From IMG/VR virus record IMGVR_UViG_3300019469_000046, positions 1 to 37,037 of that record: a DNA stretch of 37,037 nt, one strand, 5' to 3'. The stretch comes from a virus. The translations under genes and the position numbers were made by a program. Positions 6,459-32,459 of the stretch are shown here, piece by piece (within the stretch, counting starts at the first letter, position 1; each line of letters starts with the position of its first letter). The notes under the pieces were generated by a model. The model did no database searches and was not told the DNA's origin. It was given only the letters and a program-made list of their open reading frames with translations.

Positions 6459-7529
6459 TTACCCCTCCTTGGATTTCAAGATTTCATCCTTTACTGCTTT
6501 TTGAATATAAGATTTTAAGTCATTCTCGATTGCTTCACGATCGGCTGCTGAAAGCCTAGTTTCGGTATCGGTTGGTTTAGCCAGTTGATTATCTACTGAT
6601 TGATTTTCAGTCGTGACTAAGGCGCCATCATCTCCGAAATTATACTGTGATCCCTCAATTTCTTGTTTTCCAGTTAGCATCCAGGCATTATCAGGATCGA
6701 AATAGTATTCCTTGCCATTAATTTTTTGCCAACCAGTCAGTGCTGCACCAAACGAACCATCATGATTAGTGTTGAAATAATACCAATGGTCATTAATCTT
6801 TTGCCAGTTAGTTAAGACATTTCCAGAAGTATCTAGGTAGTACCATTTATTATCAACTTTTCGCCAAGCACTCTTAACTGGCAACCCATTTTCGTAGTAT
6901 TGCCAAGTATCACCGTTATCTTGCCAACCATTGTTACTGCCACTTGGGTTAGTAATCTTTTGCCAGGCTTCCTTAGTTAAGTAGAAGATGCTTCGGTCCA
7001 TATCGCCACCGGTAAATTGCCATCCAGTTAGAGCACTGAACGCGCCAGAACTAACACTCATATTTGGCAAAGTCCAACTATTCCAGTTCATCGAGGCATA
7101 TTTGGCAACCCAAGCCCCACAATATTTAGCACAGTTAGCAACCTGCCATAATGCCGATTCTTGAACATAAATTAGCGGCCATACTCCAGTAAGCCGATGA
7201 ACCTCAGTAACAAAGCGCAAAGACCAGTTAGTATCACCCCAAGAACTATTTTGATATGATTCCCAGTCAAGGATAAGAATTCCTTGACCAATATAGTTCT
7301 TGATGTTGTTAATGAAGTATTGTGCTTCGGCTTCCGGATTGCCACCGCCAGCATAGTGATACAGGCCGCGCAGTTTACCAAGTTGACCGGCTAAATCCCA
7401 TTGGTGATTGCATCGAGGGTTAACGTATGTAGTCCCTTGCGTAGCTTTAACAATCACTCCATCGGCATGGCTATCTCGAATAATACTGTCTGAACTACCA
7501 GAATAAACATCTACTGTATACAATGCCAT
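6459..7529 (-). CDS. Endolysin: GH25 muramidase with C-terminal aromatic cell-wall-binding repeats
   Basis: N-terminus VDVYSGSS...GVIVKATQGTTYVNP...GLYHYA is GH25-like. C-terminus has repeated W..YY..G...TGWQKI motifs. Confidence 0.85.
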   Translation of the reverse strand: MALYTVDVYSGSSDSIIRDSHADGVIVKATQGTTYVNPRCNHQWDLAGQLGKLRGLYHYAGGGNPEAEAQYFINNIKNYIGQGILILDWESYQNSSWGDTNWSLRFVTEVHRLTGVWPLIYVQESALWQVANCAKYCGAWVAKYASMNWNSWTLPNMSVSSGAFSALTGWQFTGGDMDRSIFYLTKEAWQKITNPSGSNNGWQDNGDTWQYYENGLPVKSAWRKVDNKWYYLDTSGNVLTNWQKINDHWYYFNTNHDGSFGAALTGWQKINGKEYYFDPDNAWMLTGKQEIEGSQYNFGDDGALVTTENQSVDNQLAKPTDTETRLSAADREAIENDLKSYIQKAVKDEILKSKEG

Positions 7530-27396: not shown

Positions 27397-28176
27397 TTAT
27401 TGTTTTAGTAGTTTGACGATTAAATCATTTCTCGCATTATGAGCGTCATCTTCGTTCTTGAATGTCGATGTGTGATATTTATGCCCACAAAATGAAACTT
27501 GGCCTATAAACTTACCGCTCTTAAGCTTGGTGGTACCTCTTGTTTGTATTTTGCTTTGTATCAAACGCTTTTTGTTTCTGCACTTTTCAGAACAAACATC
27601 TTTTTTTGAATATTTGTTAACTTTGAATGATTTTCCACAAACTAAACAATGCCTAATCTCATCATCAACACCAGACTTTTTTCTAAATGCACTTTGACAA
27701 GCTGGAGAGCAAAATTTTGAGCGGCTAAATGCTGCTCTATAAACCTTTCCACAGTTTTTACAACGTTTAATGTATCGCTTCTTAATTTTCTTTCCACGAT
27801 GAGCATCAGAATTAACTTGTCTGCCCTCTAAAGTGCGATGCCACTGTGCAGCGGCTGGTCTAGCATTTTCATCAAGATTTTTTCTCCATTTAGGAAGCAT
27901 TTTGTTATAATCATGTTCTTTATGATAAGCAAGATGTTGTTTTCTAGTTAAGCATTCTAAGTTATTAATTTCATTGTTGTCCTTGTTTTCGTCAATATGA
28001 TTAATTTCCATACCATCAGGTATTTTCCCATTATGCTTTTGCCAAACATAAACATGCAGTCTCATGCGAGAAACACCTATTTTTTTAGTTGAAAGATAAT
28101 ATCCCGTTTTATCATCTTTTCTAAACTTGTAGCCATCAATAAAACCATACCCATCCTTATACGTTACTTCGCTCAC
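27397..28176 (-). mobile_element. Free-standing HNH homing endonuclease with two CxxC...C zinc-ribbon motifs and a C-terminal AP2 domain
   Basis: GAGGTGAT-TACA-GTG start at 28176. HNH core INHIDENKDNNEINNLECLTRKQHLAYH. AP2-like SGKFIGQVSFCGHKYHTSTFKNEDDAHNARN. Inserted between terL and the portal gene. Confidence 0.8.
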
Positions 28177-28229
28177 TGTAATCACCTCACATATATTGTA
28201 ACATACAATATATGGTATGATCACTGTTG

Positions 28230-30304: not shown

Positions 30305-30578
30305 AATATGCAAAAAGCCAAGAGGCTCCATCTCTTGACTTCTTGCGTTCCGGAAATAAAGCTAACCTGCTAACCGTTATTTGCGATTAGCTTTTTTTTA
30401 TCGCATAAGCCTTAGCGAAGTTAATCGCGGCTACCGACAATAACCAAATTGTCAGTGCGATAACATGGCAGCCTCTCTTTCCGGAGTACTGTTATTTCCA
30501 TCAGTATCATCCCCTTCCCGGATTCAGGGAATCACTTCCGGAACGCTGTAGTCTTTCAGGCGTCCCTTACTTGACTAC
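30305..30578 (-). ncRNA. Candidate structured RNA of about 270 nt with its own promoter and terminator (family unknown)
   Basis: No credible ORF. An 11-bp closing helix GCGTTCCGGAA/TTCCGGAACGC spans about 190 nt. Internal hairpins: GTAGTC/GACTAC, TTCCC/GGGAA, GACAAT/ATTGTC, TGCGAT/ATCGCA. Confidence 0.45.
30311..30340 (-). terminator. Rho-independent terminator ending the structured RNA unit
   Basis: Minus sense: GTCAAGAG-ATGGAGC-CTCTTGGC followed by TTTTTG. Confidence 0.6.
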
Positions 30579-30584
30579 ATTTAT

Positions 30585-30613
30585 ATTATACATTATTAAC
30601 GTATAGATAACAA
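30585..30613 (-). promoter_or_regulatory. Sigma-70-type promoter: TTGTTA, 17-nt spacer, TATAAT
   Basis: Minus sense -35 at 30613-30608 and -10 at 30590-30585, with exact 17-nt spacing. Confidence 0.55.
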
Positions 30614-30631
30614 CAGAAAATTGAAAGAATC

Positions 30632-30772
30632 TTATTTATTTTTATGTACTTTAAAAGCTGGCAAGTGTTGACCTGTCAGCTTTTTCTTTTGCTTCATATG
30701 TCTGTCAGCTTGGCACAGCATCATGTACTCTTGCTTACTAGCCACCAAGCCGAATCGTTTAGTTTGATACAT
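30632..30772 (-). CDS. Mini-ORF (46 aa), hypothetical
   Basis: GGAGGAAAA-ATG. Translation MYQTKRFGLVASKQEYMMLCQADRHMKQKKKLTGQHLPAFKVHKNK. Confidence 0.3.
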   Translation of the reverse strand: MYQTKRFGLVASKQEYMMLCQADRHMKQKKKLTGQHLPAFKVHKNK

Positions 30773-30811
30773 TTTTCCTCCAACCAAACAAGCCAGCGCT
30801 AGGCTGACTTG

Positions 30812-30907
30812 TTATTTAATACAATTAATAATTAATGTTGAAGCAACAATAACTATCCAAAGATAAAAACAAAGAAATGATAAAAATTTAGTAAATCTTT
30901 CCATCAT
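30812..30907 (-). CDS. Mini-ORF (31 aa) encoding a hydrophobic peptide
   Basis: GGAGGAACATC-ATG. Translation MMERFTKFLSFLCFYLWIVIVASTLIINCIK has a single TM-like segment. Confidence 0.35.
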   Translation of the reverse strand: MMERFTKFLSFLCFYLWIVIVASTLIINCIK

Positions 30908-31034
30908 GATGTTCCTCCAAGAAATTAGTATGTCCTCTCAAGGAATTAAATTGTTTATCAAATTCCTGGCACTTTTCGCTTTTTATAATAAGGAGGAGCT
31001 TTTCAACTCCTTTAATTGATCTGATTGCTTACTA

Positions 31035-31126
31035 TGCTAAGAGCCGGAATCGAACCGAACTTCATGCGCAGATTTCCGTTGAATCGCATAAAATTTCCAC
31101 CTGTGCTCTCGCCAGAGAACGTTAGC
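31035..31126 (-). ncRNA. tRNA-like module 2 (non-canonical, 92 nt)
   Basis: Minus sense: GCTAACG...TCGG-TTCGATT-CCGG-CTCTTAGCA. Has a canonical T-loop sequence, a 5-bp acceptor-like GCTAA/TTAGC pairing and a 7-nt-loop hairpin GATT-CAACGGA-AATC. It does not fold as a standard cloverleaf. Confidence 0.35.
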
Positions 31127-31325
31127 GACAGAGAGTTTGTGAAAAGCAGGTGACTATCAACTCCTTTAAATTGAATTGAGTGTCATCTCTATCTCTCTGC
31201 TTGAAGCACCGTTAAACATTAAAAGAGGAGGCTTAACATCTCCTTTAATTGATTGTGCTTCAATATGGAAGGCATAAGACAAGCGAGGTGCTAGCTTCAC
31301 CTCCAAATATATATTGCCTTCCAAA

Positions 31326-31400
31326 ATGAACACCGGGAATCGAACTCCGGCAGGTATCGAATGGGATTTATTCGAACTTACGACCCTCTCACCTGTTCCA
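31326..31400 (-). ncRNA. tRNA-like module 1 (non-canonical, D-arm-less)
   Basis: Minus sense: GAACA-CAGGT...TCGAAT-AAATCCC-ATTCGA-T-ACCTG-CCGG(A)G-TTCGATT-CCCGG-TGTTC. Has a T-loop, a 7-nt-loop hairpin and a closing 5-bp stem. Confidence 0.35.
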
Positions 31401-31856
31401 AATGCTCACATAATCAGAACTAATTAACTCCCGCACCCGGTCGTAGTTTTCCGCCTACTCCTGTAACGGACGTTAGTGTTCTGAATAGTTGTAATCTTCT
31501 AGCCGTTGAGTTAGATTACGCACTCTTTTGCTGATAACAGCACGGCTACCGTGAGACTAGCAGAGTCGGCTATTTATTACTGTAAATAATCTCTTATTTA
31601 GAAAGGAGTAATTCATTTGACATTCATTTCAAGAACCAAGGTTTCACCAAAACACAAGTCTATATTGCTAGTCTCAACGTGGATTATGGAACTTGCATCC
31701 ATCTCCGGCTTGGTTACCGTTCCACACACTTAATCTAATAGAGAGATCCTGATTGCGGTATGTTGTGAGTATACGCAACTCAGTCACTCTTTATTTTGAG
31801 CAGTTTAACGACATACTCGGGTCAATGAAGTAGGGTTATCGTTATTTTTCGACAAT

Positions 31857-31865
31857 ATCATAATA
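31857..31865 (-). promoter_or_regulatory. -10-like hexamers (TATTAT/TATGAT) without a -35, just downstream of the 11-bp repeat array; candidate activator-dependent late promoter
   Basis: Minus sense ...GGGAGCACTTTTAGTGTATTATGATATTG. The -35 position is occupied by the last repeat. Confidence 0.35.
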
Positions 31866-31876
31866 CACTAAAAGTG

Positions 31877-31942
31877 CTCCCGAGATGCTCCTGATTATCT
31901 CCTATTTTACTCCCGTTTTGCTCCTGTTTTGTTCCTATTTTT
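31877..31942. repeat. Six exactly phased 11-bp repeats (plus: nCTCCyrnTTTT; minus: GGAG every 11 nt)
   Basis: Units: gCTCCcgagat gCTCCtgatta tCTCCtatttt aCTCCcgtttt gCTCCtgtttt gTTCCtatttt. The last unit overlaps the stop codon of the ArpU-like gene. Confidence 0.85.
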
Positions 31943-32459
31943 CATTTAATTCTTCGAATATCGGTAGAACATCCGGATCAACATTCATTCTAATAGCTAT
32001 CTTGTCACAGGCTTCCGCAAATTCTACACAAGCTTGTTGATCAGCCTCACTGTATGTCGTATTGCCATAATTCCTGTTCATTCTTTCTTTGACTTGCCAG
32101 ACAAACAAGCCACCAACATACCGTAAATTTAGAATATCACGACTGATTGCTTTACAAGATTTAATTGAAACAGCAACTGCCTCTTTAGCCTTAGTACACT
32201 CTGCGTAATAAGTCATCATGCTTTGCACTGCATTACCTCGACCCGATCCTCGAATACCAGTAAGATCCATGAGGGGGCTCTTAACACCATCTGATAAAGC
32301 ATTTCGACATATTTTTTGGTATGGGCTGTCATGGTTCTCATCTTCAAAGAAGAATCGGCGGACATTCCTAATGGTTGCTTTTCTATTAGTATTCGGAACT
32401 AACCCCACTGCATTTCTCCCCCTTGTGATATAATTGATTTGTTTTAATTTATATCTCAA
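31935..32459 (-). CDS. ArpU-family phage late transcriptional regulator
   Basis: 174 aa. C-terminal pattern RDILNLRYV...TTYSEADQQACVEFAEACD resembles ArpU-family (sigma-like) regulators. Last gene before the packaging region. Confidence 0.55.
   Translation of the reverse strand: MRYKLKQINYITRGRNAVGLVPNTNRKATIRNVRRFFFEDENHDSPYQKICRNALSDGVKSPLMDLTGIRGSGRGNAVQSMMTYYAECTKAKEAVAVSIKSCKAISRDILNLRYVGGLFVWQVKERMNRNYGNTTYSEADQQACVEFAEACDKIAIRMNVDPDVLPIFEELNEK

Follow-up and report, generated by a model that had tools for sequence, protein, structure and literature searches.

The window analysed here is the whole of a 37,037-nt stretch of viral DNA (IMG/VR record IMGVR_UViG_3300019469_000046) and represents a temperate siphophage of the Lactobacillaceae type. 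On its minus strand the genes follow one another in the order ArpU-like activator, ~1 kb without a conserved open reading frame (ORF), ORFs of 31, 46 and 56 amino acids (aa), TerS, TerL, HNH endonuclease and portal. The subject of this report is the ~1-kb gap. Its centre is an already catalogued Rfam family, the Lacto-phage-1 RNA (RF03004), which we found embedded in a larger conserved core and followed by a series of tRNA-like units and hairpins. A sequence-only reading of the same stretch had proposed a candidate large ornate RNA, similar to GOLLD or ROOL or of a new class, at this place.

Lacto-phage-1 and its homologous loci

At gathering thresholds, the whole window gave a single match to Rfam 15. 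This was Lacto-phage-1 at 31570-31491 on the minus strand: its 89.3 bits clear the gathering score of 50, and the match covers all 81 positions of the model (E = 1.3e-15). Hairpins P1 to P3 and the conserved loop 1 (CUCUGnUAGUCUC) are all present, loop 1 is invariant, and 15 homologous loci also pass the gathering score. GOLLD (RF01998) and ROOL (RF03087) matched neither at gathering thresholds in the whole window nor at E<=10 over 30400-32400, where the permissive scan returned only noise beyond Lacto-phage-1. ARAGORN found no tRNA or tmRNA gene in the window, and the tRNA model RF00005 had no match at E<=10 over 30400-32400. The region is neither a GOLLD nor a ROOL RNA, and the proposed likeness to these two families fell with these searches. 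The remainder of that proposal, a structured minus-strand RNA in a phage late-operon context and beside tRNA-like elements, was borne out.

In the literature searched, Lacto-phage-1 is an orphan Rfam motif without a published function. The main text of the discovery study does not discuss it (Weinberg et al. 2017, NAR 45:10811), and no further paper outside that study mentions it. The window is a new member of this known family; its context and extended architecture were not found described, as far as the main text of the discovery study goes.

To collect homologs, we scanned viral and metagenome contigs by pattern and then ran blastn, which gave 28 non-redundant loci. The first collection pattern, CTCTGNTAGTCTCNNGG, was too short for genome contigs, where it returned 120 mostly chance loci with one useful member, L148. 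This locus was itself fetched by a chance match (7207-7223), its real Lacto-phage-1 copy lying ~5 kb away at 1911-1989 on the minus strand. Variants of the L148 kind (loop 1 UUGAUAGUCUCA) are under-sampled by the patterns used, though the Rfam consensus has A at that position. Among the matches listed for a gapped pattern, AAGA-N17-20-TCAACGGCTNNANGA, there were chance matches only and no new homolog.

The conserved core

Across the homologs, only a ~250-nt core is kept, consisting of an upstream junction (M1), a long-range helix and Lacto-phage-1. All other modules are shuffled, gained or lost. The parts of the core in the window are as follows.

31679..31725, minus strand: M1, a tRNA-like three-way junction with closing stem GTGGA/TCCAC, hairpin CGGT/GCCG and T-arm-like hairpin ATGGA-TGCAAGT-TCCAT
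31676-31666, minus strand: 5' strand of the long-range helix, TGAGACTAGCA, pairing with TGCTAGTCTCA at 31562-31552, which is loop 1 of Lacto-phage-1
31571..31665, minus strand: variable linker enclosed by the long-range helix, 63-131 nt across loci and unconserved in sequence
31491..31570, minus strand: Lacto-phage-1 (RF03004), with P1, P2 (31542-31529), P3 (31525-31508) and a pseudoknot between loop 3 and the 3' tail

We joined M1, the long-range strand and Lacto-phage-1 into one alignment of 26 sequences (A7), with the variable linker removed. The core structure was 95.6% paired in this alignment versus 88.5% in column shuffles, and its covariation score was 0.228 versus 0.103, with none of 500 shuffles as high. 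Slid controls of the structure were 28-46% paired. Thirty G-U cells of the core would become A-C mismatches on the plus strand, so the structure is that of a minus-strand RNA. The anatomy of the region, its conservation and its covariation at the level of this RNA are direct observations.

MAFFT misaligned the 5' strand of M1's closing stem, and this stem and the first hairpin were therefore parsed with a script. The closing stem covaries through GTGGAA/ATCCAC, GTGAAT/ATTCAC, GCGGAT/ATCCGC, GCGTAA/TTACGC, GCGTAA/TTGCGC and GCGGAA/TTCCGC; hairpin 1 alternates between CGG/CCG and GGG/CCC. The T-arm-like hairpin is 100% paired, and its fifth pair is AU in 9 sequences, UA in 9, GC in 5 and UG in 3. 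Within Lacto-phage-1, both P2 (covarying pairs UA/CG and CG/UA) and P3 (GC/AU and UA/GC) are 100% paired, and P1 is 93% paired with one-sided changes only. The 7-bp helix GTAATCT (31519-31513)/AGATTAC (31497-31491), which the sequence-only reading had listed, proved to be a pseudoknot that is 94% paired and has three covarying pairs (UA/CG, AU/GC, AU/CG). The pseudoknot which that reading had itself suggested, between TAGCCG (31572-31567, 31548-31543) and CGGCTA (31505-31500), is left without support: the words are present, but the pairing is 83%, with two of five pairs broken without compensation in all type-B sequences and one (columns 95-142) in L427. An alternative pairing of CGTTGAG in the M1 tail with CTCAACG in the Lacto-phage-1 tail was also rejected, since by eye it is uncompensated in sequences of the CATTGAG type.

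The long-range helix is 9-10 bp across loci and 97.7% paired in the 26 sequences. Seven of its ten pairs are invariant; one pair is GC in 24 sequences and UA in 2 (L148 and L427), and the end pairs are CG or UG. RNAalifold predicted it unprompted, and it is present in the minimum free energy fold. It corresponds to the 11-bp helix of the sequence-only reading, which is there as described and, being nearly invariant, has weaker comparative support. RNAalifold gave no supported long-range pairing outside the core.

The Rfam model of Lacto-phage-1 is 81 nt long, has three hairpins and is typed 'sRNA'. The window shares with it the three hairpins, the conservation of loop 1 and the kind of phage that carries it. 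Beyond the model, loop 1 pairs in the window and in all 28 loci with a strand ~100 nt upstream, after the covarying tRNA-like junction; the 3' tail and loop 3 form the pseudoknot, for which the discovery study was compared by its main text; and the unit lies at a near-fixed distance from the predicted late promoter. The ~250-nt core thus appears to extend a known orphan motif, to which it adds the tRNA-like junction upstream, the long-range helix and the pseudoknot.

How much of this could have been seen in the window itself? All helices of the sequence-only reading were found at its minus-strand coordinates by searching for each quoted word, and three of the helix sets lie inside or touch Lacto-phage-1: GTAATCT/AGATTAC, TAGCCG/CGGCTA and the 3' strand of the 11-bp helix. 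Perfect inverted 9-mers are modestly enriched (5 observed versus 1.2 expected; 11 of 300 mononucleotide shuffles as high). Both strands of the 901-nt stretch fold more stably than dinucleotide shuffles, the minus strand at z = -5.3 and the plus strand at z = -4.4. The real structural support comes from the homologs, not from the window alone. Covariation among them, the check that the sequence-only reading had named, supports P2, P3, the pseudoknot, M1, the CAG domain and the 3' tRNA-like element T3 (for the last two, see below), and does not support TAGCCG/CGGCTA, the hairpin H1 or a GNRA-capped hairpin in the linker. The last of these, TAAATAAGAGATTATTTA at 31600-31583, is present as had been claimed; it occurs in only five linkers of the window type and never varies, which leaves it without comparative support.

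Two short words within the core recur elsewhere. The heptamer UCAACGG is found at 31509-31503, in the invariant 3' tail of Lacto-phage-1, and at 31082-31076, where it lies in the large loop of T3, and it is similar to part of the D-loop region in some tRNAs (e.g. AGCTCAACGGTAGAGC in L427). The linker contains an anti-Shine-Dalgarno-like tract, ACTCCTTTCT (31609-31600); by eye, a pyrimidine tract of the CTCC(T)TT type, similar to (A)CUCCUUUCU, is found in 24 of the 28 otherwise unconserved linkers. The tract in L022-type linkers, GGATAAACCTCCTTTCTAA, is close to the 3' end of 16S rRNA (the anti-Shine-Dalgarno). No consistent pairing partner was established for the pyrimidine tract or for the Shine-Dalgarno (SD)-like boxes described below.

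Modules around the core and the leader's end

The order of modules is invariant among the loci: -10 box, 5' conserved box, M1, Lacto-phage-1, variable content, a tRNA-like element with the box TAGTAAGCAATCA, a GCCTAG...GGCTT hairpin with a T-run, and the ribosome-binding site (RBS) of the next gene. Outside the core, the window has the following modules in this series.

31799..31823, minus strand: conserved 5' leader box GACCYGAG...GTCNTTAAACNNCT, with nearly invariant alignment columns, in 22 loci
31414..31484, minus strand: CAG domain, closed by TCAGAAC/GTTCTGA, with inner hairpin GTAG-GCGGAAAA-CTAC (31458-31443)
31326..31409, minus strand: degenerate tRNA-like element with acceptor-like GTGAGCA/TGTTCAT and T-arm-like CCGG-AGTTCGATTC-CCGG, helices identified by eye
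31266..31323, minus strand: hairpin H1, TGGAAGGCA (31323-31315)/TGCCTTCCA (31274-31266), enclosing GAGGTG/CACCTC; stable and conserved in sequence
31201..31263, minus strand: hairpin H2, TTGAAGCAC (31263-31255)/GTGCTTCAA (31209-31201), enclosing the SD-like hairpin AAAGGAG...CTCCTCTTT
31035..31126, minus strand: 3' tRNA-like cloverleaf T3, with acceptor-like GCTA/TAGC, D-like CTCT-GGCG-AGAG and a T-arm with the canonical TTCGATT loop
31022..31034, minus strand: conserved box TAGTAAGCAATCA, right after the tRNA-like 3' end, in 21 loci
30990..31013, minus strand: third SD-like hairpin, AAAGGAGTTGAAAAGCTCCTCCTT, weakly terminator-like (terminator-like site 31011-30994)
30812..30907, minus strand: 31-aa hydrophobic ORF with its own RBS, carried as cargo within the leader in the window, L047 and L032 only
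30782..30811, minus strand: terminator-like hairpin CAAGTCAGC-CTAGC-GCTGGCTTG followed by TTTGGTT, directly abutting the RBS of the 46-aa ORF

The leader ranges from ~690 nt (L225) to ~1230 nt (L227). The CAG domain, H1 and H2 are optional modules, and the shortest leader lacks all three. In L022 and L066, Lacto-phage-1 is followed by a genuine tRNA-Trp, and L032 has a genuine tRNA-Lys; in the window, these slots hold degenerate elements, H1 in the slot of the tRNA-Trp and the 31326-31409 element in that of the tRNA-Lys. L071 has ORFs in the variable stretch, and by eye one of them appears to come immediately after a truncated CAG domain. Types of M1 are freely recombined with types of Lacto-phage-1 among the loci, and the leader is 80-95% conserved between phages whose neighbouring activator genes are unrelated. 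Since the types recombine and the same collection contains no relative of the window's activator gene, the leader appears to behave as a mosaic module, more strongly conserved than what surrounds it. By the same comparison, the 900 nt are best described as a modular array and not as one fixed ornate fold.

The CAG domain is found only downstream of type-A Lacto-phage-1. Six of its 22 pairs show compensatory change (RNAalifold, 9 sequences), and variants include TAGAACAC/GTGTTCTA with GCTG/CGGC in L148, GTAA/TTAC in L220 and AGGAC/GTCCT in L427. The helix TCAGAAC (31484-31478)/GTTCTGA (31420-31414), seen beforehand in the window as a 7-bp pairing, is supported by this covariation. T3 has compensatory changes in 4 of 21 pairs, located in the D-like stem and the T-arm (RNAalifold consensus, 13 sequences); its long arm, CAGGT.../...TCTG, carries a loop of 25 nt, and the element ends in ...AGCA, with CCA not encoded. 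In other loci, its place is taken by different tRNA-like types, some of which have perfect acceptor stems GCTGATG/CATCAGC in common with the real tRNA-Lys. The T-loop word GTTCGATTCC, by which the sequence-only reading had set the orientation, indeed occurs in two copies (31345-31336 and 31055-31046) on the minus strand only.

H2, which had likewise been read from the window as enclosing AAAGGAG/CTCC, is present, and its support comes solely through divergent loci. Among close homologs it shows U-A to U-G changes only and no compensatory change. By eye, L427 (ATCACGGC/GCCGTGAT) and L148 (GACGTGGT/ACCACGTC) have positional equivalents with different closing stems and the same SD-like inner hairpin. 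These divergent stems would support H2, homology being judged by position. The SD-like box TCAATT(T)AAAGGAG(A/T)TG is present in three copies (31252-31237, 31174-31158 and 31019-31004). A 55-aa ORF starting with GTG (31333-31166) was rejected as coding: it spans H1 and H2, homologs have 1-2-nt indels there, and it has no family match.

Box TAGTAAGCAATCA pairs with a downstream ATTGCTTAC in most loci; this partner is absent in the window, L047 and L032. Most leaders not of the window type (L033, L020, L044, L022, L066, L068 and others) have an extra covarying hairpin between the ATTGCTTAC box and the terminator, with the conserved loop (C/G)TGGAAA(A/G) and stems such as GTGTCCGG/CCGGGCAC, GTGTCTGA/TTAGACAC and CATTTAG/CTAAATG. 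The 31-aa ORF is in its place in the window. At the end of the series, the GCCTAG...GGCTT hairpin and its T-run close the leader in 20 loci, with the next RBS within ~10-25 nt. For the 5' leader box we found no supported pairing partner, and RNAalifold gave no consensus structure over the first ~150 nt; a pairing of GACCYGAG with CTCAGGAT upstream of M1 was discarded, as by eye its mismatches are inconsistent across homologs.

Predicted promoter, proposed processing and rival explanations

Upstream of the leader, the features that bear on its transcription are these.

31935..32459, minus strand: putative late transcriptional activator (ArpU-like), 174 aa, directly upstream of the leader
31877..31937, minus strand: YRGGAG direct repeats, five perfect copies (31926-31877) and one degenerate, at an exact 11-nt spacing
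31852..31865, minus strand: -10-like box TATTATGATATTGT (consensus TATTATGGTATTGT) with no -35, the predicted late promoter

The activator matched phrog_248 'transcriptional activator' (E = 3.6e-20) and had no match in Pfam and no relatives among the viral contigs searched. The first YRGGAG repeat begins 9 nt past its stop codon. The pattern YRGGAG-N5-YRGGAG gave five overlapping matches, the sole such array in the window, and none of 100 shuffles reached five. Homologs carry phage-specific repeated words at the same place (TGCGGA, TGGCG, CCGG, TGCAG, GTACAG or TGGCGG) followed by the same -10 box, a layout found in all loci with upstream sequence. The distance from the -10 box to Lacto-phage-1 is 236-364 nt (20 loci). 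The binding sites of ArpU, RinA and LtrC have been shown experimentally to be direct repeats just after the activator gene (PMC3753634), and by analogy the YRGGAG repeats are predicted activator-binding sites. As in the late promoters of the ArpU/RinA/Ltr type (Quiles-Puchalt et al. 2013), the gene of the putative activator is just upstream, the repeats come right after its stop codon and the predicted promoter faces terS. The leaders differ: those measured in ArpU/RinA-type phages are 28 and 118 nt long, and only the activator is needed (PMC3753634), whereas those of the window and its homologs are ~0.7-1.2 kb, structured and ended by a terminator.

We favour, with a probability of roughly 0.55, the explanation that the region is a long untranslated leader of the late unit (terS, terL, portal and so on), built as a modular chain of independently folding RNA units, and that it is processed. 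The leader would run from ~31845 to ~30785 on the minus strand (~1.05 kb), its predicted start lying a few nucleotides downstream of the -10 box. Late in the infection cycle, the activator would fire the promoter through the five 11-nt-spaced repeats by its gene. In the transcript, M1 (31725-31679) would fold, the strand 31676-31666 would pair with loop 1 and close off the variable arm, and Lacto-phage-1 would be locked by its pseudoknot. The cargo would follow: tRNA-derived, non-canonical cloverleaves (31484-31414, 31409-31326 and 31126-31035) and trailing hairpins (H1, H2 and the SD-like ones) in the window, real tRNA genes in the same position in related phages. Host tRNA-maturation enzymes would cut the primary transcript at the tRNA or tRNA-like units, RNase P at 5' ends and RNase Z at the CCA-less ...AGCA 3' ends, releasing a stable ~300-nt core RNA with Lacto-phage-1 together with tRNA-like pieces. 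The terminator-like hairpin stands directly before the first conserved late-side ORF, and some polymerases would read through it into the packaging genes. A transcription start at this point, the cutting of the transcript and a function of the core in trans, if it has one, are inferred from the anatomy and from the sister loci with real tRNAs. Comparable systems are the mascRNA/MALAT1 logic and the tRNA punctuation model. As in phage tRNA clusters and tRNA-like processing signals, the slots hold real tRNAs in sister phages and the window units keep a T-arm, a D-like arm, an acceptor-like stem and a CCA-less end; they differ in being undetectable as tRNAs.

Several points weigh against this explanation. 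The tRNA-like units fail both detectors (ARAGORN, and RF00005 at E<=10) and have an aberrant anticodon arm, and their recognition by RNase P and RNase Z is a prediction by analogy. The promoter and the start are predictions as well, and the activator scored 28.3 bits with TIGR01637 phage_arpU, under the cut-off of 43.1 (E = 1.7e-6). The window's terminator has an interrupted, poor T-run and was not called by a simple terminator scan. A sigma-70-like promoter (TTGTTA-17-TATAAT) at 30613-30585 on the minus strand could drive the downstream genes independently. RNA-level support for the long-range helix comes from a single compensatory position, in two sequences that may be related, and from G-U changes. 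H1, which the sequence-only reading had listed with its inner GAGGTG/CACCTC, is present but shows no covariation: it has no compensatory and three uncompensated changes (GGAAGACA, GGCAGGCA, GAAGGTG).

The main rival of the processed leader is that the core works in cis, by put-like antitermination or by attenuation, acting on RNA polymerase or on folding of the nascent RNA so that the terminators before terS are read through. It is attractive because the layout of promoter, core, terminator and immediate RBS is conserved. The core always lies 236-364 nt downstream of the predicted late promoter. In 20 loci the leader ends in an intrinsic terminator, and since the gap from there to the next RBS is too short to hold a promoter, read-through is structurally required. 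The window has another terminator-like hairpin (~30335-30305) before terS. Late promoter, leader RNA, terminator and late genes are arranged in this way in lambda (pR'-6S RNA-tR'), and the HK022 put RNA is likewise a conserved, promoter-proximal RNA element. The core is unlike these in sequence and size, however. The put RNAs are ~70-nt two-hairpin elements that it does not resemble, no put family matched in the Rfam scan at E<=10, no sequence feature ties the core to RNA polymerase, and nothing points to a modification of the polymerase. The terminator in the window is itself weak, and leaky terminators are common after tRNA clusters. Moreover, the late operons of the ArpU/RinA type that have been studied need the activator only, with leaders of 28-118 nt (PMC3753634). 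We consider such a cis-acting role of the core rather unlikely.

The large trans-acting RNA of the GOLLD/ROOL kind, with the whole 0.9-1 kb as one fold, possibly self-assembling and with embedded tRNA-like elements, now seems improbable. The setting is that of both families: a Lactobacillales-type phage, probably late expression, and a position beside or interleaved with tRNAs. GOLLD is a large structured phage RNA near tRNA islands, with a conserved and a variable part and tRNAs sometimes in the variable linker; it is found in Lactobacillales and other phages, its expression rises in lytic growth, and it assembles into homo-oligomeric nanocages. ROOL, too, is located in phages and prophages of Lactobacillales, often beside tRNAs. 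The z-score of the 901 nt would fit such a fold, and a palindromic CUAG in the long-range helix might in principle allow intermolecular pairing. A single fixed 900-nt fold is contradicted, however, because the leader is modular: modules outside the core are gained, lost and swapped, down to the ~690-nt leader, supported long-range pairing ends with the core, and in L071 an ORF seems to intrude after the truncated CAG domain. The one large ornate RNA of the sequence-only reading is thereby reduced to a ~250-nt conserved core. Neither family matches in sequence or structure, also at E<=10. The conserved part of the window's locus is small and 5' with a swap-in/swap-out array as the remainder, unlike the organization of GOLLD, whose conserved domain is 3', and the locus has no fixed global architecture such as the six multistem junctions plus the three pseudoknots of ROOL.

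We hold it to be similarly improbable that the gap is a decaying, functionless tRNA island, in which Lacto-phage-1 would be a small independent sRNA and the remainder relics of phage tRNA genes and terminators. The acceptor sequences GCTGATG/CATCAGC shared between tRNA-like elements and real tRNA-Lys, the failure of every window unit in the tRNA detectors and the highly variable module content would be expected of such an island. In the degenerate units, however, the D-like and T-arm stems still covary, and compensatory pairs persist in the CAG domain, which indicates selection on structure. The leader is also 80-95% conserved across phages with unrelated activator genes, and Lacto-phage-1 is coupled to M1 by the long-range helix. 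A role of the repeats in duplex DNA, as a pac or cos site or as an array bound by terminase or recombinase, is the least probable of all, and we regard it as very remote. Cos and pac sites often lie upstream of terS, as this region does, there are three direct copies of TCAATT(T)AAAGGAG(A/T)TG, and the 11-bp inverted repeat is invariant in sequence. Opposed to this are the stems that covary with pairing kept, the 30 G-U cells that are A-C mismatches on the complementary strand, the strand-specific T-loops and the Rfam covariance-model match. In addition, TerL is a Terminase_3 of the A118-like kind, for which headful packaging from a site within terS is usual.

Going beyond the processed leader, we put forward tentatively, as a minority view, that the core and its tRNA-derived cargo are an undescribed class of active phage late-leader RNA. 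Such an RNA might be an antiterminator that licenses read-through from an ArpU-type promoter into the packaging genes. Or it might be a decoy or scaffold directed at translation, by way of its tRNA mimics and its anti-Shine-Dalgarno-like tract with a likeness to the 3' end of 16S rRNA. If so, its function could be analogous to that of GOLLD and ROOL, and it might help to account for the link between large phage RNAs and tRNA islands. This link is unexplained and is shared by the present locus, whose smaller and modular make-up could ease dissecting it. Late-gene control of the ArpU/RinA type governs packaging and transduction of phages in Gram-positive bacteria (PMC3753634), and it would gain an RNA layer if read-through is controlled by the core. 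For Lacto-phage-1 itself, the fixed place in the late transcript, the coupling to an upstream tRNA-like junction, the tRNAs or tRNA mimics after it and the terminator before the packaging genes turn an isolated 81-nt motif into a defined and experimentally approachable transcription unit.

The flanking genes add some context. By TerL, the nearest isolated phage is Latilactobacillus phage TMW 1.706 P2 (62% identity), in which the gap at the equivalent position is only ~300 nt; the same TerL was seen on metagenomic contigs only. Against 50,697 phage records, blastn of the gap returned nothing, and megablast of 25 kb of the window gave a 40-nt match only and no close relative. The 31-aa ORF has no family match. 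The first gene past the leader is as follows.

30772-30632, minus strand: conserved 46-aa ORF (MYQTKRFGLVASKQEYMMLCQADRHMKQKKKLTGQHLPAFKVHKNK), starting ~10 nt past the terminator-like hairpin of the leader

This ORF is kept as a protein in at least 14 related loci and has no match in Pfam or PHROGs. After the sigma-70-like promoter, ~270 nt of the minus strand (30613-30305) contain no ORF of more than 30 aa and several hairpins, and end in the terminator-like hairpin CCAAGAGATGGAGCCTCTTGG followed by TTTTTG (~30335-30305) before terS. The stretch has no Rfam match at E<=1 and is common, at 95%, to locus L035 only; it resembles a separate small-RNA unit that lies between the leader and terS. 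Further downstream, terL and the portal gene are separated by the HNH endonuclease gene (27397-28224, minus strand), which has the look of an insertion of the homing-endonuclease type.

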